Assembly: GCA_023247725.1 (NCBI GenBank)
Contig: JAHFFW010000010.1
Coordinates: forward strand, 7,734-71,733
From: Candidatus Omnitrophota bacterium
GTDB taxonomy: Bacteria > Omnitrophota > Gorgyraeia > Zapsychrales > JAHFFX01
DNA: 64,000 bases
Reading direction: 5' to 3'
Shown: positions 12,873 through 38,972 of the stretch, piece after piece
How positions within the stretch are numbered: the stretch's first letter is position 1
How the letters are laid out: each line of letters starts with the position of its first letter
The notes under the pieces: model-generated
Told to the model about the DNA's origin: nothing
The model's input: only the letters and a program-made list of their open reading frames with translations
The model's database searches: none
Program-made: the position numbers and the translations under genes

Positions 12873-12873
12873 T

Positions 12874-13335: not shown

Positions 13336-13349
13336 CGAGGAGGTTTGAA

Positions 13350-14492: not shown

Positions 14493-14509
14493 AAAAGGAG
14501 GATTGAGTT

Positions 14510-14935
14510 ATGTTTACTGGAATTGATCGTAACGAAACCAAGCGGTATAAATCGCCCAATGATCCGGATCCTTCCAACCCAACGGTATTCATTCTTGGGT
14601 TATTGGATCCGACCGTCCGTAATTACATCGAGGACATCACCAGCTCTCTCGATGTCGATCCCAAGAATCCCAACGACAAAGCCAAGATGAATTTCAGTCT
14701 GGGGCGGCGTAATCATCTGATTGTCAAGTACGGGTTAAAGGGAATTGAGGGGTTCCTTCATCCAAAGACCAAAGAGCCGGTCAAGTTTGAAACGACCAAC
14801 GGGCATTTTGCGGGGAAACTCATCGAGGGAGTCAGCGAGGATGTCTTGAACATGATTCCCAGTAATCTGAAGACGGAATTGGCCGAGGTTATCTGGAACG
14901 AGGACAAGTTTCATGAGGACGACGCAAAAAACTAA
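14510..14935 (+). CDS. tail assembly chaperone (gpG-like)
   Basis: 141 aa with RBS AGGAGG. Ends ...DDAKN* with the slippery heptamer A_AAA_AAC at 14926-14932. Followed by a start-less ORF in the -1 frame. Confidence 0.6.
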   Translation: MFTGIDRNETKRYKSPNDPDPSNPTVFILGLLDPTVRNYIEDITSSLDVDPKNPNDKAKMNFSLGRRNHLIVKYGLKGIEGFLHPKTKEPVKFETTNGHFAGKLIEGVSEDVLNMIPSNLKTELAEVIWNEDKFHEDDAKN

Positions 14936-15249
14936 GACTGGCAGTCTGGCTTAGTTTTTCCAGAGGCCAGCTGGACTGCCCGAAACTTAAATCACAGGCC
15001 AAGGACAATCAGTGCGCTAAGGAGGAATGTGAGGATAGCATTTGGAATTTCAACGGCGAGGAATTTAAGGGGTGTCCGGTCAAGAAGATCAGTGCAAGGA
15101 GCTGGGAGTATTTAAGGGCGTTCATATTCTACAACCGGGGATTTCTGCCGAATCCGGGCGGATGGATTGACCAACCTAAAAAGTTTATGCGGGCGATGGA
15201 GATCATCGAATTCGAGATGATCAATATCAAAGAAAAAGAGGGAAAGTAA
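14510..15249 (+). CDS. tail assembly chaperone GT-like fusion produced by programmed -1 ribosomal frameshift
   Basis: The -1 frame from 14917 is open for 111 codons with no ATG start (..KKLRLAVWLSFSRGQLDCPKLKSQAKDNQCAKEECEDSIWNFNGEEF...GWIDQPKKFMRAMEIIEFEMINIKEKEGK*). It ends in TAATG, overlapping the tape-measure start. Slippery site A AAA AAC is at 14926-14932. Confidence 0.55.
14926..14932 (+). promoter_or_regulatory. -1 programmed ribosomal frameshift slippery heptamer A_AAA_AAC
   Basis: X_XXY_YYZ motif in the zero frame (gca aaa aac) two codons before the gpG-like stop. Confidence 0.5.
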
Positions 15250-16796
15250 TGCCAACGAATCGCGAACTTGAAATCATCATGCGGCTTCGTGATGAAGTAA
15301 CGAAGCGATTGAAAGGAATCGAGGGCGCCTTTATCCGTTTTAAAAACGCCGTCAAGGAACTGGGCACTCACATGAAGCAGCTGGGCCGGGATATTTCGCA
15401 GGTCGGCCATGCCGTGAGTCTTTTGGGGGCGTCAATCACCGGCCCCATGCTTCTGGCGTTCAGGAATTCCACGGAATACTCGTCACGCGTCAGCGCCCAA
15501 ATGGAACGGCTCAAGAACGTCACAACGGCTTTTCAGATTACTATCGGTGAGGCTTTGGCGCCGATTATGGAAAGGTTTACGAACATTCTTGGGGCCCTTC
15601 TTGACCGGTGGAATGCTCTTGGACCCGTCCAGCAACAGGCGATTATCCAGGCAACGTTCATGGCCGGTGTGTATTTGACCGCTACGGGAATCATCACAAC
15701 GATGACCGGCAAAATCATTGCCCTTGCCGGTGGAGTGCTGAAATTAGCCGCGGCGTTTTTGAGTCTGTCGGGGAGTCAAATGGCGCTTGTCGCGTTGATT
15801 GCGGCCGTGGCGGCTCTTATTTTGTACTGGGACAAGCTTGGCAAGGTAGCGGTCCCGGTTCTTAACGCGCTTGAGATTGGATCCAAGATGGTTGCTATCG
15901 GATTTCTGTCGATCGTCCGTGTCATCAATCAGGCGTTATCGGCGATGCTGGATAAGGCATCGCTCATATACGAAAAGGTCAGTCAGTTCAAACTGCTTCC
16001 CGAGAGCATGAAGGTCAATTACAGCATTGCGGCGTTATCTCTAAAGGATATGTCGAATCAACTGCGGGCGAATGCGTCGATCACGGACAATTACATCAAA
16101 AGTCTGGAAGGAGGAATTTCGAAGATATTTCTCGAAGGGCAGGGGGATTTGGTCGTCTTTTTTGAAAATACTCATGCCAAGATCAAATCGATTTTTGATT
16201 TGTTTAAGAATCCGCCCAAGGTCGACATTCAGCCGATTGTAAAGCAATTCAATGCCATCAAGGACATCGCGCAGAATACGGCTCAGGCGATGAGTCAAAG
16301 TCTGGGTGATTTTTTCTTTAATGTCGTTACAGGTCAGCTCAACAATCTCAAGCAGGTATTCGCGGATTTTGGAAGAAGCATCCTACGGATCCTATCCAAT
16401 GCCCTAGCCAAACTTCTGTTGGTTAAAACAATCGGCCGGATGTTTCCGGGGCTTGGGCAGTTTTTTCATCAAGGGGGAATGGTTTATCATGCCGGGGGCA
16501 TCATCCAGAGGGCGCATTCGGGGATGCTGGCCTCTGATGAGGTCCCGATCATTGCTCAATCCGGTGAAGGAGTTTTGTCCCGCCGGGGGATGTCGGCTTT
16601 GGGGATTGAGAATTTCAACCGGATCAATCGAGGCGAGAGGATGAGGGAGGGCGGCATCGAAATCAACATCCCGGTCATTATCCAAGCCTGGGATGTCCAG
16701 GATATCAATCGAAACAAGAGAGCCATCAGCGACATCGTTGGCGAGGCCATCCGGAACAACAGCTCTATTCGTGATCTTATAAGGAGATACACCTAA
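15249..16796 (+). CDS. tail tape measure protein
   Basis: 515 aa with coiled-coil N-terminus, central hydrophobic segments and C-terminal FHQGGMVYHAGGI..SGEGVLSRRG motif typical of tape measure proteins. Follows the G/GT pair. Confidence 0.8.
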   Translation: MPTNRELEIIMRLRDEVTKRLKGIEGAFIRFKNAVKELGTHMKQLGRDISQVGHAVSLLGASITGPMLLAFRNSTEYSSRVSAQMERLKNVTTAFQITIGEALAPIMERFTNILGALLDRWNALGPVQQQAIIQATFMAGVYLTATGIITTMTGKIIALAGGVLKLAAAFLSLSGSQMALVALIAAVAALILYWDKLGKVAVPVLNALEIGSKMVAIGFLSIVRVINQALSAMLDKASLIYEKVSQFKLLPESMKVNYSIAALSLKDMSNQLRANASITDNYIKSLEGGISKIFLEGQGDLVVFFENTHAKIKSIFDLFKNPPKVDIQPIVKQFNAIKDIAQNTAQAMSQSLGDFFFNVVTGQLNNLKQVFADFGRSILRILSNALAKLLLVKTIGRMFPGLGQFFHQGGMVYHAGGIIQRAHSGMLASDEVPIIAQSGEGVLSRRGMSALGIENFNRINRGERMREGGIEINIPVIIQAWDVQDINRNKRAISDIVGEAIRNNSSIRDLIRRYT

Positions 16797-25747: not shown

Positions 25748-25945
25748 ATGGTGAAAAAGGAAGAAGTTTTAACCGCAGAAGAAGTTGCGGAATATCTAAG
25801 GATTCATCCGTACACGCTGAGACGATTAGCCCGGGCAGGCAAACTCCCGGGCTTTAAAATTGGTGGGCAGTGGAGGTTTCGGAAAGATGAAATCGACGCA
25901 TGGTCAAAAGGATCTAAGAATAAGAAGAAAAAAGGGAAATCATAA
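25748..25945 (+). CDS. excisionase-family / MerR-type HTH DNA-binding protein
   Basis: LTAEEVAEYLRIHPYTLRRLARAGKLPGFKIGGQWRFRKDEIDAW is the 'excisionase family DNA binding domain' HTH pattern. 65 aa. The stop overlaps the next ATG. Confidence 0.6.
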   Translation: MVKKEEVLTAEEVAEYLRIHPYTLRRLARAGKLPGFKIGGQWRFRKDEIDAWSKGSKNKKKKGKS

Positions 25946-28900
25946 TGCCGAGAATCTTTGACAATATCGATCTTGATTTATTAACGGCCTTAAAAGAAAC
26001 TTTAAACGTTTCTAATCGTGCTGATTTCTGCGTTGGCTATTTTAATTTGAGGGGATGGAGGCAGATAGATTCTTATATTGAACGTTGGGCCGGTGGTGAG
26101 GGAAAGTGCTGCCGGTTGTTGGTCGGGATGTCAAAGTTACCCCAGGATGAATTGCGAGAAGCGCTAAGCCTTGTGAAGAACGAGGAAGGAATTGATAACC
26201 AAACGGCTTTACGCCTTAAGAAGAAACTAGCCGAGGAATTCCGAAACCAGTTAGCTTGGGGTATACCTACAAATGAAGATGAAGTTGGTCTGCGGCGTTT
26301 GGCATCACAAATTAAGGCTCAAAAGGTTGTGGTCAAGCTATTCCTGCGACACCCTCTCCATGCAAAACTCTATCTGCTTTTTCGTCCTGACCCCATTAAC
26401 CCTACTGTGAGTTATCTTGGCAGTAGCAATCTAACTTTCGCTGGTCTATCTAAACAAGGCGAGTTAAACATTGACGTGTTAGACCACGACGCTTGCCAGA
26501 AATTGTCCAGATGGTTTGAAGATAGATGGGATGATCACCGGTGCATTGATATTTCAAAAGAACTGGCAGATATAATTGATGAGAGTTGGGCGCGCGAGGA
26601 GCAGCCCATTCCTTATTACATATATCTTAAAATGGCTTATCACTTATCGCAGGAGGCTCGAGTTGGTCTGTCTGAATTTAAAATTCCAAAGGAGTTTGGT
26701 CAAAAGCTTTTTGAATTTCAAACAGCGGCGGTTAAGATAGCGGCTCACCATATTAATAAACGTGGTGGTGTGCTAATAGGTGATGTTGTGGGCTTGGGAA
26801 AAACACTAATGGCCACGGCCGTCGCGCGCATTTTCGAAGACGATCACGGACTCGAAACCTTAGTCATCTGCCCCAAGAACTTGGTCCCTATGTGGGAAGA
26901 CTACCGAGAGCAATATCGTTTACATGCCAAAGTGCTTTCCATCAATCGTGCGGCGCGAGAGCTTCCAAGTTTACGCCGATACCGCTTAGTTATTATCGAT
27001 GAGAGTCACAATCTTCGTAATCGTGAGGGGAAACGCTATCGAGCAATTCAAGAATATTTGCAGGAAAATGAAAGTAAGGTAATACTGCTTTCGGCTACTC
27101 CCTATAATAAAACCTATTTGGATTTATCTAATCAATTACGGCTTCTCGTTTCTGCTGATAGTGATATCGGGATTCGCCCCGAACGAAAATTGCGTGAAAT
27201 GGGTGAAACCGAATTTATCCGCCAGCATCAGTGTTCAGTTCGTTCTCTCGCCGCATTTGAAAAGAGTGAATATGCCGATGACTGGCGTGAGCTGATGCGC
27301 CTCTATCTTGTGCGCAGAACACGCACGTTCATCCAGGATAATTACGCTGAAACTGATCCAACGAATGGAAGAAAGTTTTTAACATTTGAAGACGGCACGC
27401 GATCCTATTTCCCGACCCGCATACCAAAGACTGTACCGTTTCATATTGACGATCATAATCCATCAGACCAGTATGCTCAGCTTTATGCGCCTGACGTTGT
27501 CGATATAATCAACCATCTCAATTTACCCAGATATGGTCTAGGCAATTATGTAGCCGCCACCCCCCATAAGCCGCCAACGGCAACTGAGCAAAAGATTTTA
27601 CAAGATCTTTCTCGTGCTGGTCGAAGACTCATGGGTTTCTCGCGAACAAACCTATTTAAACGTCTGGAGAGCAGCGGGCATGCTTTTCTCCAATCGGCTG
27701 AACGGCATATCTTACGGAATTTTATCTTTCTTCACGCTATCGAGAATGACCAGCCGATACCCATTGGAACGCAAGACGCCGAGATTCTCGATACACGATT
27801 CTCTGATGAAGATAAAACAGTTGAGTTATTTAACGATAATGATGACGATGGAGAAGTGGCTGAGGAAACGACATCACTAAGGAGTGAAAAAGATTTCAAA
27901 AATCGAGCTTCAGAAGTTTATTCAGAGTATTTCAAATTACACAAACATCGTTTTAAATGGCTGCCGCCGGAATTTTTCGTTAAATCACTGGCTAATGATT
28001 TACGAGCTGACATAGATACACTTATGAGAATTTTGAACAAATGCAAGCAGTGGGACCCTGCCAAGGATGCGAAACTCGATGCGCTTTACGACCTGTTAAT
28101 AAAAAAATACCCGAATGACAAAGTCCTGATTTTTACCCAATTCGCCGACACGGTACGTTATCTTGAGAAACAACTAACTGATCGTAAGGTTGCAAAACTG
28201 GCTGGCGTTACCGGTGACTCTTCTAATCCCACTGCCTTAGCCTGGCGCTTTAGCCCAATTAGCAATAACAAACAAGAGTATATTAAACCAGCTGATGAAC
28301 TTCGTGTATTAATTGCGACGGATATCCTGAGCGAGGGGCAAAACCTCCAGGATTGTTCCGTTGTGGTCAATTTCGACCTGCCCTGGGCTATCATTCGTTT
28401 AATTCAGCGGGTTGGACGCGTAGACCGTATCGGACAGAAAGCCGAGAAAATATTATGTTATTCATTTCTGCCAGCCGAGGGGGTTGAGCAAATTATTAAT
28501 TTGCGCAACCGTGTGCGACAGAGACTCAGTGAAAATGCCGAAGTGGTAGGGACAGATGAGGCATTTTTCGAAGACGACCGCGATGACAGAAGAGTGCTCG
28601 ATCTATATCACGAAAAATCCGGAATCTTGGATGGAGATGCTGACAGCGAAGTGGATCTTGCATCCTATGCCTACCAGATTTGGAAAAATGCTATTACAGA
28701 GAATCCGGAGTTGCAAAAAGTTATTCCTGAACTGCCGGATGTCGTTTACTCTACAAAACCAATTAAGCCAACTGAAAAAGAACCAGAGGGAGTATTGGTT
28801 TATCTTCGCACGGCAGAAGGAAATGACGCGCTCACTTGGGTCAGTAAAGACGGAAAAAGTGTTACCGAATCACAACTTACAATTCTTAAAGCCGCTGAGT

Positions 28901-29322
28901 GCGCGTCCAATACCCCTACAGTCCAGCGCATGGAAGAACATCATCAGTTAGTTCAGAAAGGCGTTGAGCTGATTGTCGCAGAAGAAAAGTCTGTCGGTGG
29001 CCAGTTAGGACGTCCATCGGGTGCGCGTTTCCGGACATACGAGCGTTTGAAACGATATGTAGAGGAAGTAAAAGGCACTCTTTTCGAATCCCAAGAACTA
29101 CTCAAAGCTATTGAGGAAATATACCGCTATCCCCTGCGGTCGACTGCCCTAGACACCCTCAACCGTCAATTAAGAAGCGGTATATCTGATCAGACATTGG
29201 CGGAATTGGTCGTGGCCCTCCGTGATGAAGGCCGATTGTGTATTATTAATGAGGAAGAGCAGGTTCACGAACCGCAGATTATCTGTTCTCTTGGGCTCGT
29301 TTCTAAGCGGGAGGCCAAGTAA
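25945..29322 (+). CDS. fused PLD-family (HKD) nuclease + SNF2-family helicase
   Basis: N-terminal HAKLYLL.....LGSSNLT (HxK...GSxN HKD motif). Then SNF2 motifs GDVVGLGKTLMA (I), VIIDESHNLRN (II, DExH), LLSATPYNK (III), QRVGRVDRIGQ (VI). 1125 aa. Confidence 0.85.
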   Translation: MPRIFDNIDLDLLTALKETLNVSNRADFCVGYFNLRGWRQIDSYIERWAGGEGKCCRLLVGMSKLPQDELREALSLVKNEEGIDNQTALRLKKKLAEEFRNQLAWGIPTNEDEVGLRRLASQIKAQKVVVKLFLRHPLHAKLYLLFRPDPINPTVSYLGSSNLTFAGLSKQGELNIDVLDHDACQKLSRWFEDRWDDHRCIDISKELADIIDESWAREEQPIPYYIYLKMAYHLSQEARVGLSEFKIPKEFGQKLFEFQTAAVKIAAHHINKRGGVLIGDVVGLGKTLMATAVARIFEDDHGLETLVICPKNLVPMWEDYREQYRLHAKVLSINRAARELPSLRRYRLVIIDESHNLRNREGKRYRAIQEYLQENESKVILLSATPYNKTYLDLSNQLRLLVSADSDIGIRPERKLREMGETEFIRQHQCSVRSLAAFEKSEYADDWRELMRLYLVRRTRTFIQDNYAETDPTNGRKFLTFEDGTRSYFPTRIPKTVPFHIDDHNPSDQYAQLYAPDVVDIINHLNLPRYGLGNYVAATPHKPPTATEQKILQDLSRAGRRLMGFSRTNLFKRLESSGHAFLQSAERHILRNFIFLHAIENDQPIPIGTQDAEILDTRFSDEDKTVELFNDNDDDGEVAEETTSLRSEKDFKNRASEVYSEYFKLHKHRFKWLPPEFFVKSLANDLRADIDTLMRILNKCKQWDPAKDAKLDALYDLLIKKYPNDKVLIFTQFADTVRYLEKQLTDRKVAKLAGVTGDSSNPTALAWRFSPISNNKQEYIKPADELRVLIATDILSEGQNLQDCSVVVNFDLPWAIIRLIQRVGRVDRIGQKAEKILCYSFLPAEGVEQIINLRNRVRQRLSENAEVVGTDEAFFEDDRDDRRVLDLYHEKSGILDGDADSEVDLASYAYQIWKNAITENPELQKVIPELPDVVYSTKPIKPTEKEPEGVLVYLRTAEGNDALTWVSKDGKSVTESQLTILKAAECASNTPTVQRMEEHHQLVQKGVELIVAEEKSVGGQLGRPSGARFRTYERLKRYVEEVKGTLFESQELLKAIEEIYRYPLRSTALDTLNRQLRSGISDQTLAELVVALRDEGRLCIINEEEQVHEPQIICSLGLVSKREAK

Positions 29323-29325
29323 ACT

Positions 29326-32300
29326 ATGCCCGTTGCCGTCGTCAATTGCAGGAATTACCTGAGGAATTTTGATCTAAATTCATTGTTTATCGAACAACTG
29401 GGCTGGGACATTCATGCCCAAACGTTGGAAGTCGCTGTTGACGGGAAAAATTTTATTTTAAATGCTGTAGCTCAAAAACGAGGCATGGCCGCATTTGTCC
29501 TTAATGGCCGCATTCCTGATTATTCCACGCGACGCAAAATTGAGCGTCAGGTAGCTAAGTCCGCCCATGAACACCTGATCATTTTTACTGATCCTGATCA
29601 GACAGTCCAAACATGGCAGTGGGTAAAGCGCGAGGCCGGGAAGCCAATCGCCTGCAGAGAGCATATTTATCACCGCAACCAATCCGGAGACGGGCTGATT
29701 CAGAAACTTCAAGCGATTGCCATTAGCATTGAAGAGGAAGAAAGCTTAACGCTTCCTCAAGTCGTTAACCGTGCGCGGACAGCCTTTGATGTCGAACGTG
29801 TCACTAAACGCTTCTATGATTGCTTCAAAACCGAACATGATGCTTTCTTCCGATTTATCAAAGGGATTCCTGATGATGAACTGCACCGCTGGTATGCTTC
29901 CGTTATGCTCAACCGGCTGATGTTCATCTATTTCATTCAAAAAAAAGGCTTCCTCGATGGTGATACTAATTACCTTCAGACGAAATTGATGCAAGCTAAG
30001 CAGCGGGGCAAAGATTGTTTCTATCGCGAACAGCTCTGCCCGCTATTCTTTGAGGGTTTCGCCAAAAAGCCCTCCCAGCGATCAGCCTCAAGTAACAAAC
30101 TTTTGGGCAAAGTGCCTTATCTAAACGGCGGGATCTTTCAACGTCATCAAATTGAAGAGCTTCATGGAAAACAAATTCAGATTTCCGATGCCGCCTTCGA
30201 GAAATTATTCAGTTTCTTTGAACAATACCACTGGCATTTGGACGAACGCCCGCTTCGCTCCGATAATGAAATCAACCCGGATGTTCTTGGTTACATTTTC
30301 GAAAAATACATCAACCAGAAGCAGATGGGGGCGTATTACACCAAAGAAGATATCACGGGCTACATCAGCAAATACACGATCAGTCCGTTCCTCTTCGAGG
30401 CGGCCCGCGGCAAATGCAAAGTGGCTTTTGAAAACCCTAAGGGACCTACTATCTGGGATTTGCTTAAAACCGATCCGGATCGTTATATCTATAATGCTGT
30501 CAAAAAAGGGATGAATCTGCCCCTGCCTCCGGAAATCGCGGCCGGGGTTAAGGACGTTGCCAAGCGCACCGAATGGAACAAACAAGCGTCCGAAGAATAT
30601 GCCCTTCCACCCGAAATTTGGCGCGAAGTCATTGAGCGGCGCAAACGCTATGAAGAAGTTAAAAGGAAACTAACCACAGGAGAAATCAAGGATATCAACG
30701 ATCTCATCACCTATAACCTCGACATTCGCCAGTTTGCCCAGGATGTCATAGAAAATTGTGAAGGCCCGGAATTGCTCCGTGCCTTTTGGCATGGTATTGA
30801 ACCAATTACCGTGCTCGACCCGACCTGCGGCAGCGGGGCGTTTTTGTTTGCCGCCGTGAACATTCTTGAGCCGCTTTACGAAGCCTGCCTTGACCGGATG
30901 GAGATGTTTGTTGAAGAGATGGAGTGTTCTGCTCAAAAACACCGCCCTGAGAAATTTTCCGATTTTCGCAAAATCCTAGAGCGTGTTGCTCAGCATCCCA
31001 ATCGCAGATATTTTATTTTCAAATCTATCATCGTCAATAACCTTTACGGTGTGGATATTATGGAAGAGGCTGTCGAAATCTGCAAGTTGCGCCTGTTTCT
31101 CAAGCTTGTTGCGCAGATTGACCGTGAAGAGCAAATCGAACCGTTGCCCGACATCGACTTCAATATCCGGGCCGGTAATACACTGATTGGCTATGCCACT
31201 TACGAGGAGATGAAAAGCGCCATTACAAGCCGGCTTGATTTTGATAATGCCTTGGATCGTATTGAAAAAAGGGCTCAGGATGTGGATCGACTGTTTAGTT
31301 TATTTCGTCAACAACAGACTGAATTAGGTGGCGAGGTCGCAGCTGAAGATAAACAGGTTTTACGAGATCGCCTTAAATCTCTTGAAGATGAACTCAATCA
31401 GTACCTCGCCAACGAATACGGCGTGGATACCAAGAAGCACGGTCCTTACGAACAATGGCTGAAAACGCATCATCCGTTTCATTGGTTTATCGAATTTTAC
31501 GGCATCATGAAGAAAGGCGGGTTCAATGTCATAATCGGTAACCCGCCATACCTTGAATTACGCGAAGTACGGTATACTCCCCAAAATTTTAAATGTGGGA
31601 ATAGTGGGGCAATCCATGCGATGTGTATCGAACGCAGTGTGCAGTTACTCCATCGACAGGGATGCATGAGCATGATTGTTCCATTGTCCTTGGTCTCAAC
31701 ACAACGAATGCAGATCGTTCAGGAAGTTCTAGAAACTAAACGAAACGCTTGGTATTCAAATTACTCGTGGCGCCCGGGTAAGCTTTTCGATACAGTTAAC
31801 CGCGCCCTGACTATCTTCGCTAGCACGCCATCAGAAAAAGGTAGAACATTCTCGACTAACTATCAGAAATGGACATCTGATAGTCGTGATTTACTTATGT
31901 TAAAACTCAACTTCATTGAAATCTTTCGACCGCGACCGGCTTGTTGGATTCCCAAACTTGGTAATGAGATAGAACCTTCAATTTTAAAGAAATGTTTACA
32001 AGTAAAAGTCCCATTAGGCAGTTTTATCCGAAATAATAATTACAGGATTTACTATCGCACCACTGGAGGCCTCTATTGGAAAGTATTTACAGATTTTCCA
32101 CCCGCATTCAAAGTTAATGGAAAGGTCGGTCACTCCAGTCGAGAAACTAAGTTTTCGTTAACCGACGCAAGATTTGTTTTTCCTGTCATAGCTGTTTTAA
32201 GCAGCGATCTGTTTTGGTGGTGGTACACTATCACAACTAATTGTCGTGATCTTAACCCTTATGATATACAGAATTTTCCTATTCCTGAATCTGCGATAAC

Positions 32301-32562
32301 TGACGCAGCGCTGTCAAGCTTAGGAGAAAAATACCTGAAAGATATTAAGCAAAATAGCATCATGCTGGTTCGTGTTCAAAGACAAACTGGCAGGACTCAA
32401 ACTCAGTCGTTTAAAATCCAAAAGACTAAGGCGATCATCGATGAAATTGACCAAGTGATAGCTAATCATTATAGGCTTAATCAAGAAGAGATAGACTTTA
32501 TCACAAATTATGACATCAAGTACCGCTTAGGTTTCGATGATGAAGATAACGATGAAGAATAG
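29326..32562 (+). CDS. MmeI/PglX-family (type IIG / BREX-like) N6-adenine DNA methyltransferase
   Basis: KVPYLNGGIFQ...LGYIFEKYINQKQMGAYYTKEDITGYI parallels MmeI (FPYINGKLFE...IFGSLFQSI...LGAHYTSEANI). Motif I VLDPTCGSGAFLFAAV and motif IV VIIGNPPYLE (NPPY). The N-terminal ~100 aa contain a possible degenerate PD-(D/E)xK (IIFTD...QWVK). ~1078 aa with a long C-terminal TRD-like region. Confidence 0.85.
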   Translation: MPVAVVNCRNYLRNFDLNSLFIEQLGWDIHAQTLEVAVDGKNFILNAVAQKRGMAAFVLNGRIPDYSTRRKIERQVAKSAHEHLIIFTDPDQTVQTWQWVKREAGKPIACREHIYHRNQSGDGLIQKLQAIAISIEEEESLTLPQVVNRARTAFDVERVTKRFYDCFKTEHDAFFRFIKGIPDDELHRWYASVMLNRLMFIYFIQKKGFLDGDTNYLQTKLMQAKQRGKDCFYREQLCPLFFEGFAKKPSQRSASSNKLLGKVPYLNGGIFQRHQIEELHGKQIQISDAAFEKLFSFFEQYHWHLDERPLRSDNEINPDVLGYIFEKYINQKQMGAYYTKEDITGYISKYTISPFLFEAARGKCKVAFENPKGPTIWDLLKTDPDRYIYNAVKKGMNLPLPPEIAAGVKDVAKRTEWNKQASEEYALPPEIWREVIERRKRYEEVKRKLTTGEIKDINDLITYNLDIRQFAQDVIENCEGPELLRAFWHGIEPITVLDPTCGSGAFLFAAVNILEPLYEACLDRMEMFVEEMECSAQKHRPEKFSDFRKILERVAQHPNRRYFIFKSIIVNNLYGVDIMEEAVEICKLRLFLKLVAQIDREEQIEPLPDIDFNIRAGNTLIGYATYEEMKSAITSRLDFDNALDRIEKRAQDVDRLFSLFRQQQTELGGEVAAEDKQVLRDRLKSLEDELNQYLANEYGVDTKKHGPYEQWLKTHHPFHWFIEFYGIMKKGGFNVIIGNPPYLELREVRYTPQNFKCGNSGAIHAMCIERSVQLLHRQGCMSMIVPLSLVSTQRMQIVQEVLETKRNAWYSNYSWRPGKLFDTVNRALTIFASTPSEKGRTFSTNYQKWTSDSRDLLMLKLNFIEIFRPRPACWIPKLGNEIEPSILKKCLQVKVPLGSFIRNNNYRIYYRTTGGLYWKVFTDFPPAFKVNGKVGHSSRETKFSLTDARFVFPVIAVLSSDLFWWWYTITTNCRDLNPYDIQNFPIPESAITDAALSSLGEKYLKDIKQNSIMLVRVQRQTGRTQTQSFKIQKTKAIIDEIDQVIANHYRLNQEEIDFITNYDIKYRLGFDDEDNDEE

Positions 32563-33151
32563 AACTCCTGCGGATATGGAAACTCGTGAAGTTTCAAGAG
32601 GCCATCACGATTATCCGAATCAACTCATTCGTTGTTTTGAGAATAGATCGCCTTTAATTATCACTATGCAAGGCAACATTTCGATTTTTCGAAATGATAA
32701 ATTGGCCCTCTTTTGTTCGGTCAAATGTCCCGGCAAGGTCATCATTACGCTTTATGACTATATGCAAGCTTTGTGTGAGCAAGGCCAAACGGTCATCAGC
32801 GGTTTTCATTCACCCTTGGAGAAAGAATGCCTCCGCATTCTGCTCCGCGGCCGACAACCAGTTATTATCTGCCCGGCTCGAGCTATTCAAAATATGCGCT
32901 TGCCGGAGGACTGGAAGAAACCGCTTCAAGAAGGCCAACTGCTTTTGATATCGCCTTTCAAGGGAAACCAACGTCGGGTTACTATAGATCATGCTCAACA
33001 ACGAAATGAATTTGTCGCAGCCCTAGCGGACAGGATATTGATTCCCTATTCGTTCCCTGGTGGACGAACGGAAAAACTGCTTGAAAAGATTTCGCGCTGG
33101 AATAAACCCATTCTAACAGATATCGGATCAACCATGCAGTTTGCAAGATAA
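32537..33151 (+). CDS. DprA/Smf-like Rossmann-fold (SLOG) protein
   Basis: YPNQLIRCFENRSPLIITMQGN...LALFCSVKCPG...VISGFHSPLEKECLRILLRG...VIICPA...LLLISPF....RNEFVAALADRILI matches the DprA core (YP.LL..i.dpP.vLy.rG...vAiVGSRk.s...SGlA.GID..aH..aL..gG.tiaVl..gl...vvSE.....RNriiagLs..vlvve). The start overlaps the MTase stop (translational coupling). Confidence 0.65.
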   Translation: MMKITMKNRTPADMETREVSRGHHDYPNQLIRCFENRSPLIITMQGNISIFRNDKLALFCSVKCPGKVIITLYDYMQALCEQGQTVISGFHSPLEKECLRILLRGRQPVIICPARAIQNMRLPEDWKKPLQEGQLLLISPFKGNQRRVTIDHAQQRNEFVAALADRILIPYSFPGGRTEKLLEKISRWNKPILTDIGSTMQFAR

Positions 33152-33235: not shown

Positions 33236-33270
33236 GGCAAGGCCTAAGATTGGTTTTGCCATTTTTTATT
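33236..33270 (+). terminator. weak terminator-like hairpin after the MTase/DprA-like operon
   Basis: GGCAA-(15 nt)-TTGCC followed by ATTTTTTATTTATT. A second hairpin CGACCATT-N12-AATGGTCG lies at 33162-33189. Confidence 0.3.
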
Positions 33271-33305: not shown

Positions 33306-33334
33306 TTGACAAAAATAAAGTCAATTGATATAGT
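33306..33334 (+). promoter_or_regulatory. strong sigma70-like promoter (TTGACA-17-TATAGT) driving the Ubl-conjugation operon
   Basis: ttgaca aaaataaagtcaattga tatagt lies ~40 nt upstream of the first ORF of the operon. Flanked by two CAATTG palindromes, a possible operator. Confidence 0.55.
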
Positions 33335-33375
33335 ATGTGCAATTGTAACAGTTTAATTGAATATGGAGGTGTGAA

Positions 33376-33549
33376 ATGGTCGCAAAACCAACGATTCAGG
33401 AGCTAGAGGCTCTTTTAAATAGTGAAGAGGAGACGCCTATGCAAATTCTTCCTAATGGGGAAATCAGAGCCGTTGGGCAGACAAATCCTGCTGATCTTGC
33501 AGGGAAGAAGCCAATAACCATGAAAGAAGATTTAGGTGGAGAATATTGA
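33376..33549 (+). CDS. 57-aa ORF ending ...KEDLGGEY; candidate ubiquitin-like/Pup-like modifier or conjugation substrate
   Basis: Not in the ORF track because it is under 60 aa. RBS GGAGGTG 6 nt upstream of ATG 33376. The stop overlaps the start region of the E2 gene. Translation: MVAKPTIQELEALLNSEEETPMQILPNGEIRAVGQTNPADLAGKKPITMKEDLGGEY. It is the first gene after the strong promoter. The di-Gly lies 2 residues from the C-terminus, in an operon that encodes E1, E2 and a JAB peptidase. Confidence 0.4.
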   Translation: MVAKPTIQELEALLNSEEETPMQILPNGEIRAVGQTNPADLAGKKPITMKEDLGGEY

Positions 33550-33551
33550 TT

Positions 33552-33926
33552 ATGGATACTGGTCGTATTCAAAGAGAATTTTTAGAAGCCCAAAGAGCCT
33601 TTTCCTACATTGAGCTTCACCCTACTATCGATGGCAAGGTGTACGTAAAGACAGCGCTCCAAGCTTCAAATCAAATGTATATTCTATCCATTAAGTTCCC
33701 AGATGGTTATCCGAACGAGATGCCAAGAGTATTTGTTGATACCCCAGCCATAACGACTGCTCCACACAGATATCAAAATGGCCATATCTGTTATCTTCAC
33801 CCTACGATGTGGAATCCAGGAATTCACAATATTTCTTTTGTAATTGCGCGGGCAGCAAAATGGTTAAACAAATATGAGATTTGGAAACGTCAAGGTCAGT
33901 GGCCCGGTGCGGAGATTAAACACTAA
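33552..33926 (+). CDS. E2-like ubiquitin-conjugating enzyme (UBC fold, catalytic Cys)
   Basis: FPDGYPNEMPRVFV.....PHRYQNGHICYLHPTMWNPG matches the UBC core (..P..PP.v.F.t.i.HPN....G.ICLdiL...WsP). Start taken at ATG 33552 (MDTGRIQ) with GGTGGAG as RBS. Confidence 0.65.
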   Translation: MDTGRIQREFLEAQRAFSYIELHPTIDGKVYVKTALQASNQMYILSIKFPDGYPNEMPRVFVDTPAITTAPHRYQNGHICYLHPTMWNPGIHNISFVIARAAKWLNKYEIWKRQGQWPGAEIKH

Positions 33927-33938
33927 GAGAAGGTAACT

Positions 33939-34472
33939 ATGAAAATAGATTTTAAAACTTTAAAAATGATGGAATTGAGAAGTTCTCCTGGAGAGGTTTT
34001 AGATCGGGTAGCCAGAGATGGGGAGGTATTTGTCATTGAGAGAAATGGTCAGCCCAAAGCATGCCTTGTTCCGGTTTCTTTTCTTCTGCCTGATATTTCT
34101 CCAGAAAGGATAACGGAGGAGTTAAATAAACTTCGCGATAAAAAGGAAAATTATAAATTAACGATTAATGATCATAAGGAACTTGAGATTAAATTTCAGG
34201 AGAGTGCTGCTGGCGAAAATATTGTAATCAGTATCGTGCTGCCACACGGGTATCCCAACGCTGCTCCCAGAATTGACGCACAGGGTATTCCAGAAAACAC
34301 GCCCCATCGATGGCAAGATGGGTCTTTATCGATTTTTGGAACCATAGCAACGTGGAATACCAAGAGTCACGATATCATTTACGCATTAATTGTAGCCAGA
34401 AGTTGGCTTAAGCAATACGCGAAATGGCGAAAAACTGGTGAATGGCCAAAAGATTTGCAGGACGGATCATGA
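33939..34472 (+). CDS. Phd/YefM-like N-terminal domain fused to a catalytically inactive E2 variant (UEV-like)
   Basis: N-terminus LKMMELRSSPGEVLDRVARDGEVFVIERNGQPKACLVPVSFL matches the Phd/YefM antitoxin fold pattern. C-terminus LPHGYPNAAPRIDA....PHRWQDGSLSIFGTIATWN is paralogous to the upstream E2, but the active-site Cys is replaced by Ser. Confidence 0.55.
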   Translation: MKIDFKTLKMMELRSSPGEVLDRVARDGEVFVIERNGQPKACLVPVSFLLPDISPERITEELNKLRDKKENYKLTINDHKELEIKFQESAAGENIVISIVLPHGYPNAAPRIDAQGIPENTPHRWQDGSLSIFGTIATWNTKSHDIIYALIVARSWLKQYAKWRKTGEWPKDLQDGS

Positions 34473-35323
34473 AAAAAGATCAAACATTCGAGAGAATTGA
34501 CTCCCTTTTTGATATTCAACTTTTGGCACCTGTCCGGGTGCTATTCGCTGGCTGTGGCTCCGGTGGAGGAAGTGTAGCTCTCCAACTTGTCATGTCGGGA
34601 ATTCGTAATTTTACACTTTTAGATCGGGATATCCTTGGAGCAGAAAATGTTATTAGGCATGTTTGCGGAAGAAGTTTTATAGGGAAAAAGAAAGTCGATG
34701 CCTTAACGGAAATTTTACAGGACAGGAATCCAAATATCGATGTCAAAAAGATAGAAGCGGACATAATGAATTTTTCGGATATTGAATCAGAAATTTGCGG
34801 ATCTGATGTTGTTGTTTTGGCGACGGACAACGAACCATCCCGTTATAAAATTAATGAAATTTGCGTAAAAAATGAAATTCCTTTTGTCGTGGGACGGGTT
34901 TTTACCAGAGGTATTGGAGGCGAGGTCTTTAGTTATCGACCTGACTCTGGGGGATGTTTGGCTTGTCTTGAATCTTTTTTGCAGCGTACTTCATATAGAG
35001 AAGGGATAAGGGAGATAGATCTTGTTTCTGAGGAAGAGCGGGAGAAAATTTATGGTATGGAAATTTCAGAAATAAAAGACTCCCCCGGTCTGGCGGTGGA
35101 TATTTCCTTTATTACTTCTTTCCATACAAGGTTTGTATTGGACGCTATTGCGCGGCGTTTGAAAGATCGGCCTAAGTATTTGAATTTGATAGATGAAAAT
35201 TATTTAGTTTGGGGGAACCGGCCGGTGCATCCGTTTAAGAAACATTTTCAGTTGCAAAGATTTAATTTAGATCGTCAGGAGAGTTGCGCACTATGCTCGG
35301 AGAGGAATGTGGCCGATGTTTAA
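34469..35323 (+). CDS. E1-like ubiquitin-activating enzyme (ThiF/MoeB family)
   Basis: VLFAGCGSGGGSVALQLVMSGIRNFTLLDRDILGAENVIRH (Rossmann GxGxxG + D.D.v..sNl.RQ) and two CxxC pairs (GGCLACLE...CALCSE). ATG 34469 overlaps the upstream stop (ATGA). Confidence 0.8.
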   Translation: MKKDQTFERIDSLFDIQLLAPVRVLFAGCGSGGGSVALQLVMSGIRNFTLLDRDILGAENVIRHVCGRSFIGKKKVDALTEILQDRNPNIDVKKIEADIMNFSDIESEICGSDVVVLATDNEPSRYKINEICVKNEIPFVVGRVFTRGIGGEVFSYRPDSGGCLACLESFLQRTSYREGIREIDLVSEEEREKIYGMEISEIKDSPGLAVDISFITSFHTRFVLDAIARRLKDRPKYLNLIDENYLVWGNRPVHPFKKHFQLQRFNLDRQESCALCSERNVADV

Positions 35324-36236
35324 ATCAAAAAAGCCAGAGGTTAATATTTATATTCCGAAATCAGCACTTGGTGTGATTTATGATGAATGTGATCAGTATG
35401 ACCTTGATGAAACAGGCGGCAGGCTCATTGGAAATTATAAAAAAAATGGTAATAAATATACAATTGAGGTCTCAGGGATTATAGAACCCGGCCCAAAAGC
35501 GACAAGGACAGCAACGAGCTTTTTTCAGGACGGAGAATATCAGGAGAAGATTTTTAGATCAGTTGAAGAAAAACATCCCGACGTTGAACATCTGGGAAGT
35601 TGGCACACACATCACGTTAATGGCCTTGATACTTTGAGTTCTGGTGATAGGGCTACTTACCAGAGGATTGTCAATCACCATATGCATAATACGGATTTTT
35701 TCTATGCGCTTTTAGTTGTTGAAAAGAAAACCGGCGGGCAACAAAGGTATACGATCAAACATTATTTCTTGCGTCGCAAAGATTCGGCGATTTATGAAAT
35801 TCCGGACTCACAGGTTCACATTATAGATAAGCCCCTCATTTGGCCGTTCAGCGGCGCAAATAATTATTTACCGTCGTCTATACCTAAGGCTGTGGAGGTC
35901 AAAAGCAACTCCAATCAGGAACGTGTCAAAGATCAAGAATTTTTCGCTGAATTTTATTCCGGCTTTAAGCCTTTATTCTCAAAGAACACGAATGCCTTTT
36001 ATTGGAAAGGTAAATTGAATCTTGTTGATAACACCTTTTTAGACGTGGTGGTTATAGAAAATCAGGATGATCATGGATGGGCCTATTCGATCGCTGTTGC
36101 TGATCAGATCCCATCAATATCCAATATTTTGACAAGTTACAAAGATCGTACCTTTAAATCTGCAAGGCTTGCCGTGTTTAATATAGAGAGAAACATCAAT
36201 CAAGGAATTTATCTTAAAAAGGAATCAAATGTATGA
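35307..36236 (+). CDS. JAB/JAMM (MPN+) metallopeptidase, deubiquitinase-like
   Basis: ETGGRLIG ... HLGSWHTHHVNGLDTLSSGD fits the JAMM motif E...H(S/T)H-x7/8-S-x2-D. Confidence 0.8.
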   Translation: MWPMFKSKKPEVNIYIPKSALGVIYDECDQYDLDETGGRLIGNYKKNGNKYTIEVSGIIEPGPKATRTATSFFQDGEYQEKIFRSVEEKHPDVEHLGSWHTHHVNGLDTLSSGDRATYQRIVNHHMHNTDFFYALLVVEKKTGGQQRYTIKHYFLRRKDSAIYEIPDSQVHIIDKPLIWPFSGANNYLPSSIPKAVEVKSNSNQERVKDQEFFAEFYSGFKPLFSKNTNAFYWKGKLNLVDNTFLDVVVIENQDDHGWAYSIAVADQIPSISNILTSYKDRTFKSARLAVFNIERNINQGIYLKKESNV

Positions 36237-37072
36237 ACATTATCACAGTCAATGTTGGTCAAGGTGCCCTTTCCTTGGTAAGACATAATAAGGAAGCAAT
36301 TGTAATTGATTCTAGAATTCCACCTTCAGATGACAAAACTGTCGCTTATGTGAAAGAAATGTTGATGGTGTCGCTAAAGGATCACTATGTTAAGGGTCTT
36401 ATATTAACCGGTTTTGATAGTGATCATTCGGATATAACGGGAGTTTCTATTATTCTCCGTAAGTATCGCCCTGATTGGGTCGTGTATCCCAAGTACTATA
36501 AGGAGAGTGAAGAGGCGAGATCGGTTTTTGAACGAATAGAACAAGAGGAAAAAGAAAGATGCAGTTCAACAAATCCTTTGAAAAGAATTTCTGTTAGACT
36601 TGATCAACTAAAGAATCGAAAACTTGTGGGGCTCTCTTCAAACTTTGAGTTTGAATTATTTTCTCCCCATATTGAGGATATGGACTGTTCTAACAATTGC
36701 AGTATTGTACTTAAATTGTCTGGAATCGGGGCAGGCGGTTTTTCATATTTGATAACGGGCGATACAGAAAATGAAAGATGGGAAACAATTAGCAAATTTT
36801 TTGGCGAGGCTCTTAAATCTCATATTTTGGCTGCGCCGCATCATGGCTCAAAAAACGCTACCCATCCCGCATCCCTGCTTCATATTGAACCTCACACTGT
36901 ACTTATCAGCGCTGGCGTAGACAATCAATATGGCCATCCCGACCCGGAGGCCTTAAGAGTTTATAGCCGGGTTGCAAAATTTGTATTCTCCACAAATATG
37001 CAAAACGGTGTTTCACTTTTTACGCGGGACGGAATAACCGGATTTACCACGGAATTGATCCCAAGTAATTAG
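36233..37072 (+). CDS. MBL-fold protein, ComEC/Rec2 C-terminal nuclease-like, degenerate motif I
   Basis: VNVGQGALSLV...AIVIDS...LILTGFDSDHSD (HxHxDH degenerated to GFDSDH) ... ITGDTE...ILAAPHHGSKNA (ComEC-type HHGS). ATG overlaps the JAB stop (ATGA). Confidence 0.65.
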   Translation: MNIITVNVGQGALSLVRHNKEAIVIDSRIPPSDDKTVAYVKEMLMVSLKDHYVKGLILTGFDSDHSDITGVSIILRKYRPDWVVYPKYYKESEEARSVFERIEQEEKERCSSTNPLKRISVRLDQLKNRKLVGLSSNFEFELFSPHIEDMDCSNNCSIVLKLSGIGAGGFSYLITGDTENERWETISKFFGEALKSHILAAPHHGSKNATHPASLLHIEPHTVLISAGVDNQYGHPDPEALRVYSRVAKFVFSTNMQNGVSLFTRDGITGFTTELIPSN

Positions 37073-37148
37073 TATATGTGCAATGCTATGTTAAGAGTTC
37101 TGTTATTCTTGTGTGTCAACGCAGTCGGAAAATATCGAAATGAGGTAA

Positions 37149-38249
37149 ATGGATATGGGTTATGATGTAGATTTTTTACCGGTAGGTGACGGAGAGAAGG
37201 GGGGCGATGCGATTGCTGTGCGATGGGGAAATCTAAACGGGAATCGCACAGAACAGAAAGTAATGGTCATTGATGGAGGGACGAAAGATTCAGGGAATGC
37301 TCTTGTAAAACACATTAAAGAATATTACAAAACTGATTTTGTTGATTATGTATTTTGTACTCATCCGGATGCCGATCATGCCTCTGGATTAACGGTTGTC
37401 TTAGAAGAATTAAAAGTTGGTATCTTGTGTATGCATCGTCCATGGGAACATGCCGCAGATATTAAAAATTTGTTTCAGAATGGGAAGATAACAGCAACGA
37501 GTCTCAGAGAAAATCTTCGTAAGGCACTCGAGAACGCGCATGAACTTGAAAGCATTGCGACTAAAAAAGGTATCAAGATTTTTGAGCCGTTTTCCGATAG
37601 TGTTACGAATTCAAATTCTCCATTGACAATTTTAGGACCCAGTGAGGAATTTTATCAATTGATGCTTGCTAATTTTCGGGAAACGCCCAAGCCGAAGGAT
37701 AATGTTAATATTCTCGGTCGCAGTGCTATACTTACCGCCGTTCGGGAAGCAATCCGATGGATAGGGGAAACATGGGGAGTGGAAACCCTTGCAGATCCTG
37801 AGGAGTTTGAAACGAGTGCAGAAAATAATTCCAGCGTTATACTTCTTTTACAGGTTGATGGAAATAAGCTTCTCTTTACGGGCGATGCAGGTGTTGAATC
37901 TCTTGATGCTGCTATTAATAAAGCAATTACTTTGGGGATTGATTTAACGGGTATTTCCTTTATTCAAATTCCGCATCATGGGAGTAAGCATAATGTCAGT
38001 CCATCTCTACTCGATAAACTGGTTGGTCCTAAATTAACCAATGATATTTCTAATAAAACAGCGTTTGTGAGTGTGCCCTTAAAGGGAGATCCAAAGCATC
38101 CATCAAGGAAAGTGACAAATGCCTTCAAAAGGCGAGGTGCGAAGGTTATAGCAACAAAAGAAAGCACGAAACATCATTTTAAAGATGCCCCTGATCGCGG
38201 CTGGGTTAAGGCGGAACCATTGCCTTTCTATGACCAAGTTGCTGATTAG
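37149..38249 (+). CDS. MBL-fold protein, ComEC/Rec2 C-terminal nuclease-like (paralogue of 36233..37072)
   Basis: VDFLPVGDGEKGGDAIAV...VMVIDGGT...YVFCTHPDADHASG ... LLFTGDAGVESLD...IQIPHHGSKHN. The start may be ATG 37155, which has better RBS spacing. Confidence 0.65.
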   Translation: MDMGYDVDFLPVGDGEKGGDAIAVRWGNLNGNRTEQKVMVIDGGTKDSGNALVKHIKEYYKTDFVDYVFCTHPDADHASGLTVVLEELKVGILCMHRPWEHAADIKNLFQNGKITATSLRENLRKALENAHELESIATKKGIKIFEPFSDSVTNSNSPLTILGPSEEFYQLMLANFRETPKPKDNVNILGRSAILTAVREAIRWIGETWGVETLADPEEFETSAENNSSVILLLQVDGNKLLFTGDAGVESLDAAINKAITLGIDLTGISFIQIPHHGSKHNVSPSLLDKLVGPKLTNDISNKTAFVSVPLKGDPKHPSRKVTNAFKRRGAKVIATKESTKHHFKDAPDRGWVKAEPLPFYDQVAD

Positions 38250-38972
38250 ATGTTAAAAGGAATCGATGTGATAAGACACGATAACTATACTTGGTATGCG
38301 CGGATCTATCCGGTCTTCATTGTTATCTTTCCGATAACCCTTGTTTGCATGGTTTGGTTTCAACCGTTGCTAGGATTTCTGACGGGTATCCTAAGTTCAG
38401 GGATAGCGAGTATTTTGTTTTCGCAGTTAGGGCGTGACCAAGGGAAATACAAGGAATCTAAATTATTTGAACTGTGGGGAGGGAATCCCGCTGTTCGCAT
38501 GCTTAGATATCGTGATTCGGTGTTAAGTCAGGTTACGGTTAGACGGATTCATGAGAAGCTTGCGAGTTTGGTGGCCAATACATATGCTGTGAACGAGAAA
38601 GAAGAAAAGGAAGATGCGGTAAAAGCGGATACTGTTTACACGTCGTGGGTTGAATGGTTGCGATCAATGACGCGGGATCAGAGTAAATTTTATCTTCTTT
38701 TTGCAGAAAATAAAAATTATGGATTCCGAAGAAATCTTTGGGGCATGAAATCCATAGGAATTTTGGTTTCCGTTTTATCATTAGTTGCGATCACTATTGC
38801 GCTTTATAGTGAATGGATGCGGATCGGATCTATTTCTTCGATAACTTTAGGGGCTTTTCTTTTCGTCATCTTTTGTTTTATTTTTTGGGTCTTTTGCTGT
38901 ACACCAAAATGGATACGCATTACTGCTGAAGCATATGCTAAACAACTGTTAGAGACTGTAGATCAGTTATAA
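38250..38972 (+). CDS. 4-TM membrane protein (2 TM + soluble loop + 2 TM), candidate effector or anchor
   Basis: Hydrophobic helices at ~18-40 and ~42-62 (IYPVFIVIFPITLVCMVWF; GFLTGILSSGIASILFSQL) and ~165-185 and ~195-215 (IGILVSVLSLVAITIALY; ITLGAFLFVIFCFIFWVFCC). Last gene of the operon; the start abuts the MBL2 stop. Confidence 0.5.
   Translation: MLKGIDVIRHDNYTWYARIYPVFIVIFPITLVCMVWFQPLLGFLTGILSSGIASILFSQLGRDQGKYKESKLFELWGGNPAVRMLRYRDSVLSQVTVRRIHEKLASLVANTYAVNEKEEKEDAVKADTVYTSWVEWLRSMTRDQSKFYLLFAENKNYGFRRNLWGMKSIGILVSVLSLVAITIALYSEWMRIGSISSITLGAFLFVIFCFIFWVFCCTPKWIRITAEAYAKQLLETVDQL

Follow-up and report, generated by a model that had tools for sequence, protein, structure and literature searches.

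In a 64,000-nucleotide stretch of DNA from Candidatus Omnitrophota bacterium (contig JAHFFW010000010.1, positions 7,734 to 71,733; referred to below, as a whole, as the window), two consecutive genes encode an active-type E2 and, directly after it, a duplicated pseudo-E2 preceded in the same chain by the half of a Phd/YefM antitoxin that binds DNA. Hereafter we call this second protein Phd-E2' and its E2-like part E2'. The two genes belong to a conserved cassette that sits in a defence island, and the fusion, in our tentative reading, regulates from within a conjugation system of ubiquitin-like type that is as yet uncharacterised. An open-reading-frame listing and direct reading of the DNA agree on two consecutive frames on the + strand, which, together with the domains of the second one, are as follows:

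33552-33926, + strand: active-type E2, as found in the antiphage signalling system that is based on cyclic oligonucleotides (CBASS), 124 aa (ATG at 33552, stop at 33926)
33939-34472, + strand: Phd-E2' fusion, 177 aa (paralogy and Phd/YefM match)
33951-34079, + strand: Phd/YefM-type N-terminal domain, residues ~5-47, beta-alpha-alpha-beta-beta (Pfam match at residues 7-47; secondary structure of the AlphaFold2 model)
34101-34448, + strand: E2-like (UBC-fold) domain, residues ~55-170, with no required nucleophile (paralogy with the E2; AlphaFold2 and Foldseek)

The E2 and its pseudo-E2 paralogue

The first gene starts with the ATG at 33552, with a TTG two codons upstream, and its product is, to judge from its sequence, a conventional E2 of the thioester-forming type. 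Namely, the catalytic Cys80 (codon 33789-33791) and His72, the counterpart of the HPN histidine, are invariant in 121 of 121 homologues and in all 24 related loci described below, and the same is true of His83, the WNPG motif, His92 and the C-terminal His124. The catalytic stretch aligns with that of human UBE2W (PHRYQNGHIC vs PHVYSNGHIC, E=6e-5), a profile built from 40 homologues matches 110 solved E2 chains in the PDB, the stand-alone CBASS E2 models of PADLOC match at 2.7e-13, and the precomputed Pfam assignment is PF26395, E2-CBASS; the Pfam model UQ_con reaches 23.7 bits, under its gathering score of 27. Homology in the catalytic region, taken together with the conserved Cys and HPN-type His, places the protein in the UBC/E2 superfamily. 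Its sequence closes with ...WPGA.I.H, and His124 (codon 33921-33923) is the last residue in 24 of the 24 loci and in 120 of the 121 homologues. Such a strictly kept C-terminus is unusual for an E2.

The second gene is a paralogue of the first. BLASTP aligns the two proteins with 33% identity over 92 residues (E=3e-17) and pairs NGHICYL of the E2 with DGSLSIF of Phd-E2', such that Cys80 stands opposite Ser131 (codon 34329-34331). An initial annotation of this DNA, made from the sequence alone, had read a common motif out of the two genes, with Cys in the GHICYL of the first and Ser in the GSLSIF of the second; the alignment bears out both the common motif and the Cys/Ser pairing, with the correction that the second protein reads LP.GYPN and not FP.GYPN. 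The structural comparison that it had suggested alongside such an alignment also came out in favour of a UBC fold. In particular, in an AlphaFold2 model of Phd-E2' built with 52 sequences (predicted local distance difference test score, pLDDT, 82.1), a beta-alpha-alpha-beta-beta unit at residues 5-43 is followed by a helix, a four-stranded meander and a long C-terminal helix, and a Foldseek search of the PDB with this model returned Ubc13, Mms2 and the UEV domain of Vps23 (probability 1.0, E ~5e-4 to 1e-3, TM scores 0.45-0.53). The model, these matches and the 33% identity to the adjacent E2 together assign the second gene to the UBC fold. Membership in the eukaryotic UEV family is a different matter: Pfam gave no UEV match at E<=1, only sub-threshold hits to RWD and Prok-E2_B. 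Outside its own family, the E2' domain is most closely related to the E2s of the cassette itself, and we therefore conclude that it arose by tandem duplication.

Whether the second copy keeps the chemistry of the first can be read from position 131. Among 121 close homologues (70-88% identity), it is Ser in 93 (77%), Ala in 22 (18%), Gln in three and Cys in one; elsewhere in the family it is Gly in loci L024 and L025, Pro in homologue P0129, Asp in homologue P0146 and Cys, with WNPG kept, in a sister clade of 47-50% identity (loci L021, L022, L023 and L026; homologues P0121-P0125, P0137 and P0142). Position 123, equivalent to the HPN-like His, is occupied in the close homologues by Lys, His, Asn or Arg, and Ser129, which lies beside Ser131, is replaceable by Ala or Thr. 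Since position 131 and the HPN-like His vary while 46 columns elsewhere in the alignment stay invariant, a function common to the family cannot need the nucleophile. By this reading of the alignment, the nucleophile goes back to the E2 ancestor, repeated losses followed within the Phd-E2' family, and the pattern supports a view of Phd-E2' in the clade of the window as a binding-only pseudo-E2. The paralogue had initially been called inactive, which agrees with the dispensable nucleophile and the variable His and does not carry over to the sister clade, where the Cys is kept. The genes of this clade, at ~8254-8773 in L021, L022, L023 and L026, usually keep the HPN-like His too.

It is, consequently, very improbable in our estimate that Phd-E2' is a second active conjugating enzyme, forming an oxyester on Ser131 or charged on some other residue. 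The E2s of Bub systems do use a catalytic serine (10.1101/2024.11.21.623953), the protein in the window has Ser at the Cys position, just as the E2-like protein of Bub (6E/DUF6527) has Ser in place of its catalytic Cys, and the sister clade retains Cys and WNPG. However, the Bub mechanism needs a conserved Ser, while Ser131 gives way to Ala in 22 of the 121 close homologues and to Gly, Pro, Asp or Gln in others; Ser129 is replaceable, and the HPN-like His is not conserved. Moreover, the cassette differs from Bub in having an active-type Cys E2 and a JAB peptidase, and in having no BubE/DUF6527 gene among its proteins and no beta-grasp ubiquitin-like protein (Ubl). A Bub-like serine E2 was rejected on account of the variable Ser131.

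The Phd/YefM domain, the cassette and its promoter

Ahead of the E2-like domain, residues 7-47 of Phd-E2' match the Pfam family PhdYeFM_antitox (PF02604; 30.1 bits, gathering score 29.8, E=4.2e-7), and the protein also matches TIGR01552, phd_fam, at 24.1 bits (cutoff 20.8). The N-terminal Phd/YefM similarity that had been pointed out from the sequence thus passes the thresholds of both family models, and PF02604 is matched by 52 of 52 aligned homologues. The Pfam match spans only model positions 3-43 of 74, leaving positions 44-74 unmatched. The matched half is the globular half of Phd/YefM, which is responsible for dimerisation and DNA binding, and not the C-terminal tail that binds the toxin. 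The toxin-neutralising region is indeed absent from Phd-E2', where residues 55-170 form the UBC fold instead. Within the protein, conservation is, furthermore, highest in the Phd domain: the 121 close homologues show almost no variation at residues 10-52, and even the 47-50%-identity clade remains highly similar there. One homologue, P0121 (253 aa), carries two tandem Phd domains ahead of its E2-like domain, which could be a single-chain dimer or an artefact of assembly.

An antitoxin-type domain calls to mind a toxin-antitoxin pair, and the initial annotation had suggested a protein-protein switch in the style of such systems. In its canonical form, namely a type II antitoxin fused by chance to an E2-like domain and with its cognate toxin in the operon, this idea is scarcely credible. 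The Pfam and TIGRFAM matches, both above threshold, are in its favour. Yet no toxin family (Doc, YoeB, ParE or other) was found by Pfam, PADLOC or NCBIfam among nine neighbouring proteins, what follows is a gene for a ThiF-type E1, the C-terminal region that would bind a toxin is replaced, and the Phd-E2' gene is always embedded between E2 and E1, in all 24 loci. With neither a toxin gene nor a toxin-binding tail, a canonical toxin-antitoxin pair was rejected, and what survives of the switch is the architecture alone. As for the fusion itself, which had been put forward as not known to be described, a literature search found no paper that describes it or that joins YefM with E2, E1 or JAB.

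The genes and signals around the pair, all on the + strand of the window, are the following:

33236-33260, + strand: terminator-like hairpin and T-run (9-pair stem, then ATTTTTTATT)
33306-33334, + strand: cassette promoter, TTGACA-17 nt-TATAGT with extended TG (11 of 12 consensus matches; near-consensus)
33322-33359, + strand: operator candidate (two CAATTG flanking the -10 box, conserved 12-mer, TAATTG)
33376-33549, + strand: 57-aa protein ending LGGEY, candidate modifier or E1 substrate (invariant C-terminus)
34469-35323, + strand: ThiF/MoeB-type E1 adenylating enzyme (Pfam ThiF, 4.9e-31)
35316-36236, + strand: JAB/JAMM peptidase, Cap3-like core at residues ~10-140 (intact E...HxH...S..D motif)
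36233-37072, + strand: metallo-beta-lactamase (MBL)-fold hydrolase 1, ComEC-like, last gene of the conserved core (TIGR00361 ComEC_Rec2, 1.8e-26, below cutoff)
37155-38249, + strand: MBL-fold hydrolase 2, accessory (PADLOC PDC-M48B, 3.3e-102)
38268-38972, + strand: predicted membrane protein at the position of the variable downstream gene (no family match; weak similarity, E=0.002)

The order of the first six genes (57-aa protein, E2, Phd-E2', E1, JAB, MBL 1) is repeated in 24 further loci from Alphaproteobacteria (including a complete Bradyrhizobium chromosome), Acidobacteriota, Omnitrophota, Longimicrobiales and Gammaproteobacteria. In 24 of these 24 loci the E2 and Phd-E2' are adjacent, and Phd-E2' always lies between the E2 and the E1. 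The flanks differ from one locus to another, with a TrwC relaxase or a type I restriction-modification system among them; together with a protein identity of ~75% across phyla, these differing flanks indicate horizontal spread of the cassette. Nor is the fusion rare: at 90% identity the fusion forms 1008 clusters, the E2 447 and the small protein 201, and many of the fusion clusters are labelled only 'prevent-host-death family protein'. PADLOC 2.0 and NCBIfam 20 contain no specific model for any of these three proteins.

The promoter upstream of the small gene is of particular interest for the function of the Phd domain. Its -35 and -10 boxes are conserved when 21 related upstream regions are aligned. 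The window has CAATTG at 33322-33327 and at 33340-33345, that is, on either side of the -10 box, with TAATTG at 33354-33359, and a conserved 12-mer, TGTGCAATTGTA, occupies 33336-33347, directly after the -10 box. This 12-mer, together with a CAATYG-type copy in the spacer, is the only conserved element of the 21 aligned regions besides the -35 and -10 boxes. An unbiased k-mer count led to the same place: TGTGCAAT is present in 9 of 23 upstream regions vs 7 of 920 background windows, an enrichment equal to that of the -35 hexamer TTGACA. In its exact form the 12-mer has a single copy in the 64-kb window and a single copy in each of 8 loci, every one of them 28-45 nt upstream of the small gene. 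A copy with two mismatches at 37077-37088, in the gap before MBL 2, is not above chance.

Phd/YefM operators are laid out as short palindromic repeats around the -10 box, and the cassette promoter, with its short palindromic repeats around that box, resembles them in this respect, as does the N-terminal domain, which passes the thresholds of the family. The resemblance ends with the C-terminus of Phd-E2', a UBC fold in place of a toxin-binding tail, and with the lack of a toxin gene. A long perfect palindrome was not found at the promoter, where the repeats are short ones of the CAATTG type. Among the cassette proteins, Pfam, PADLOC and NCBIfam detected no DNA-binding domain other than the Phd domain. 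The conserved operator-like element points to DNA binding rather than to the protein-protein switch of a toxin-antitoxin system, an idea that is also weakened by the match to the DNA-binding half only and by the E1, not a toxin, encoded next.

The LGGEY protein and the conjugation and downstream genes

The small protein encoded at the head of the cassette is likely, on the evidence of its C-terminus and its company, an E1 substrate or a modifier. Namely, neither 60 aligned sequences nor 25 loci show any variation at L53, G54, G55, E56 and Y57, and the junction sequences show synonymous codon variation at these very residues. In a larger set of 120 homologues, 49 end at the Tyr, 70 continue after GGEY with variable tails of 2-15 residues and one is without the motif. 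Many of the tails end in HGY or HGH, where a small reading frame that has no stop reads into the start codons of the E2 in another frame (as in L011). Because variable tails are tolerated, it appears, from the sequences, that the C-terminus is processed. An AlphaFold2 model of the protein consists of a helix, a beta-hairpin and an extended tail (pLDDT 84.6); Foldseek found no PDB match at E<4, and there was no Pfam, NCBIfam or PDB sequence match. A beta-grasp Ubl was considered and is not supported, given the helix-hairpin-tail model and the lack of any fold or sequence match. A parallel can be found in E2-CBASS, in which the E2 is recruited by a C-terminal helix and three-stranded sheet of the cyclase that stops close to a conserved Gly, and the trailing residues are removed; the helix, hairpin and GG-EY of the 57-aa protein resemble this cyclase C-terminus (PMC12948482).

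The C-terminus is not the only constrained part of the small protein: its Lys45 is nearly invariant. This lysine is of interest for the main rival to a regulatory role of Phd-E2', an Mms2/UEV-like cofactor. According to that proposal, Phd-E2' would pair with the E2 and position an acceptor, either a copy of the 57-aa protein or a lysine of a target, and thereby set the specificity for chains or targets, with the Phd domain serving only for dimerisation. The fold of E2' does resemble Ubc13, Mms2 and the Vps23 UEV, the protein is a paralogue of the neighbouring E2 with a dispensable nucleophile, the two genes are adjacent in all 24 loci, and the 57-aa protein has the nearly invariant Lys45. In this respect the cassette has the arrangement of Ubc13-Mms2/UEV, an active E2 beside a UBC-fold paralogue that has no required nucleophile. 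It differs in that E2' lost its nucleophile independently, within a bacterial lineage of E2s, has an N-terminal domain of the DNA-binding type and matches no UEV family. What is more, an Mms2-like cofactor would leave both the top conservation of the Phd domain and the operator-like promoter element unexplained, there is no Pfam UEV match, and the translational coupling of the gene is with the E1 and not with the E2. We consider this role rather unlikely, while regarding it as the foremost of the alternatives.

The coupling just mentioned consists in an overlap between the stop codon of Phd-E2' and the start codon of the E1, ATGA in the window and (A/G)TGA in ~18 of the 24 loci, which suggests that the two proteins are co-produced. 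The E1 matches the Cap2-type E1-E2 models of PADLOC at 1.5e-32, and its GSGG, its TDN and its CxxC pairs are conserved. A direct role of Phd-E2' at this enzyme can be envisaged, in which it would act as a decoy inhibitor with no DNA binding involved: the pseudo-E2 would fill the E2 site of a dimeric E1, or cap the MBL or another effector, until a trigger, possibly proteolysis, removed it. ThiF/MoeB E1 enzymes form dimers, and a dimeric Phd module would suit such a partner; the stop/start overlap in most loci, the dispensable nucleophile and the antitoxin-type architecture would all fit as well. On the other hand, the part of Phd/YefM that binds the toxin is the part that is absent (model positions 44-74 unmatched), nothing points to instability or to a protease partner, and the promoter element would have no explanation. 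We regard a decoy of this kind as decidedly unlikely.

The JAB peptidase matches the Cap3-type model of PADLOC at 2.1e-16, and E34 and the segment HLGsWHTHH...S.GD are invariant; NF050170, Cap3, scores 23.5 bits, below its cutoff. Its C-terminal extension of ~170 aa (residues ~150-306, 35760-36236) contains the motifs RY, yWkG and SA..AV...N...Y and matches no family. For the 57-aa protein a JAMM enzyme offers a further lead: QbsD reportedly removes the two residues that follow the GG in QbsE, a sulfur carrier. MBL 1 is present in all 24 related loci, with D62, D64, H65, H146, D177, H203, H204 and H235 invariant. It is without the first His of HxHxDH, reading G-F-D-x-D-H, and its best family match is the MBL domain of ComEC/Rec2.

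Beyond MBL 1 the content becomes variable. The next gene encodes a patatin-like phospholipase in 13 loci (Pfam, 2.7e-15) and a four-helix membrane protein of ~225 aa in 8 loci; the loci with such genes after the MBL, in a list that the patatin and membrane-protein loci share, include L005, L007, L008, L010, L014, L017, L018, L020 and L025 (e.g. 11451-12665 in L020). This modular pattern of effectors after a core resembles CBASS. MBL 2, which matches PDC-M48B almost over its full length, was found only in the window and in L024, and the pair that it forms with the membrane protein after it is limited to the window's lineage and to L024. This membrane protein (38268-38972) matches no family and has weak similarity (E=0.002) to the ~225-aa family that follows MBL 1 in the 8 loci. 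In L026, just downstream of the cassette (12584-16000), a 1138-aa protein combines Prok-E2_A, ThiF, JAB and patatin, that is, a Cap2/Cap3-like module fused to its effector.

Upstream, a unit at 25945-33151 encodes an HKD(PLD)-Snf2 helicase (PADLOC C3a139, 1.2e-53), a type IIG restriction-modification enzyme (1022 bits) and a DprA/PsyrA-like protein (4.4e-18). With these genes beside it, the cassette sits in a defence island, and its own role may well be one of defence. The hairpin at 33236-33260 separates the helicase, restriction-modification and DprA-like genes from the cassette.

A candidate regulator and its relatives

What, then, could a pseudo-E2 joined to half an antitoxin do? Our preferred proposal, which we put forward tentatively and as quite possible rather than as probable, is that Phd-E2' is a dimeric autorepressor of the cassette whose pseudo-E2 domain binds a partner in the pathway. 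Bound as a dimer to the CAATTG/TGTGCAATTGTA element on either side of the -10 box, Phd-E2' would keep the operon repressed, and the pseudo-E2 domain would bind the translationally coupled E1, the GG-EY protein or the charged E2. Transcription, or the availability of E1, would then track the state of the conjugation machinery. In other words, this would be antitoxin logic with no toxin, an N-terminal DNA-binding domain being combined with a C-terminal domain that binds a partner. The constraint on Phd-E2' (46 invariant columns and >1000 intact homologues) is in support of such a role, and so is the tandem Phd arrangement of P0121, which would be expected if the unit is dimeric. Furthermore, dedicated transcription regulators, CapW or CapH/CapP, commonly accompany the operons of related bacterial conjugation systems (10.1101/2024.11.21.623953).

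That said, several observations weigh against an autorepressor. The promoter element is an imperfect palindrome whose second half-site is variable, and it could serve a host factor as binding site or act as a signal of the 5' untranslated region or the initiation region; in addition, the loci share ancestry, so that the enrichment statistics overstate their independence. The PF02604 score is barely above the gathering score (30.1 vs 29.8), a phmmer search of the PDB with the N-terminal 69 residues gave no match, and hhalign of the family against the single sequence of E. coli YefM (itself checked against 2a6q) was weak, with E=0.3 over 14 columns. A profile of the whole fusion likewise gave no match in the PDB. 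Because the PDB searches returned nothing and the hhalign result was weak, the Phd assignment rests on two curated family models together with the order of the secondary structure elements. The domain might also serve only as a dimeriser, some members of the sister clade may be catalytically competent or charged, as they keep Cys and WNPG, and the choice of partner for the pseudo-E2 is a guess, just as DNA binding is a prediction.

A bolder version of the autorepressor, which we hold to be unlikely, takes Phd-E2' for a transcription factor built from a pseudo-E2, a repressor of its own defence operon that would be set free once its E2-like domain binds the E1 or a charged modifier, the modifier being the 57-aa, non-beta-grasp protein ending in GG after trimming of EY. 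If true, it would tie ubiquitin-like conjugation directly to bacterial gene control, by way of a minimal tag that does not have the ubiquitin fold.

It is instructive to compare the cassette with the systems it most resembles. As in type II CBASS, its E2 carries the Pfam E2-CBASS family, its E1 matches Cap2-type and its JAB Cap3-type models, and patatin or membrane proteins, like the effectors of CBASS, follow it. Unlike type II CBASS, the cassette has E2, E1 and JAB as separate genes, together with a free-standing 57-aa GG-EY protein, a Phd-pseudo-E2 and an obligatory MBL gene. No full-length CD-NTase was found among the cassette proteins, the sole match to a PADLOC cyclase model (PDLC00816) being the E2 at model positions 421-542, and membership in type II CBASS was rejected for the lack of a cyclase. 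The 6A-MBL system, a triple fusion of E2, E1 and JAB with an MBL, appears in row 6a of Iyer 2006 (PMC1779556) and is described as antiphage in a review (PMC13276650). It shares with the cassette the domain set (E2, E1, JAB, MBL) and the defence context. The matches to its models are weak, namely 51.2 and 43.0 bits for E1 and JAB with NF058523 (cutoff 320) and 39.0 and 33.5 bits for the two MBLs with NF058524 (cutoff 220), and the cassette differs in its split genes and in having the 57-aa protein and Phd-E2'. Membership was rejected because the scores are far below the NCBIfam cutoffs and the genes are split; the cassette is a relative of 6A-MBL, not a member. From Bil it differs in having no beta-grasp Ubl.

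Bacterial E1/E2/JAB systems such as CBASS type II, Bil, Bub and 6A-MBL are studied both as roots of eukaryotic ubiquitination and as antiviral systems, and the cassette adds to them three features that are not seen together in any of the four: a duplicated pseudo-E2 pair, a fusion to an antitoxin module and a small GG modifier candidate. The first, an E2/pseudo-E2 pair made by duplication within an operon, is a bacterial parallel to Ubc13/Mms2. The second, a pseudo-E2 that shares its chain with a DNA-binding module of the antitoxin type, suggests that the cassette itself links the state of conjugation to transcription. The third is a candidate modifier of very small size that has a GG motif but not the ubiquitin fold. 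Members of the family abound in metagenomes of soil and freshwater, across several phyla, and at present carry no functional annotation; experiments on them would annotate more than 1000 genes.

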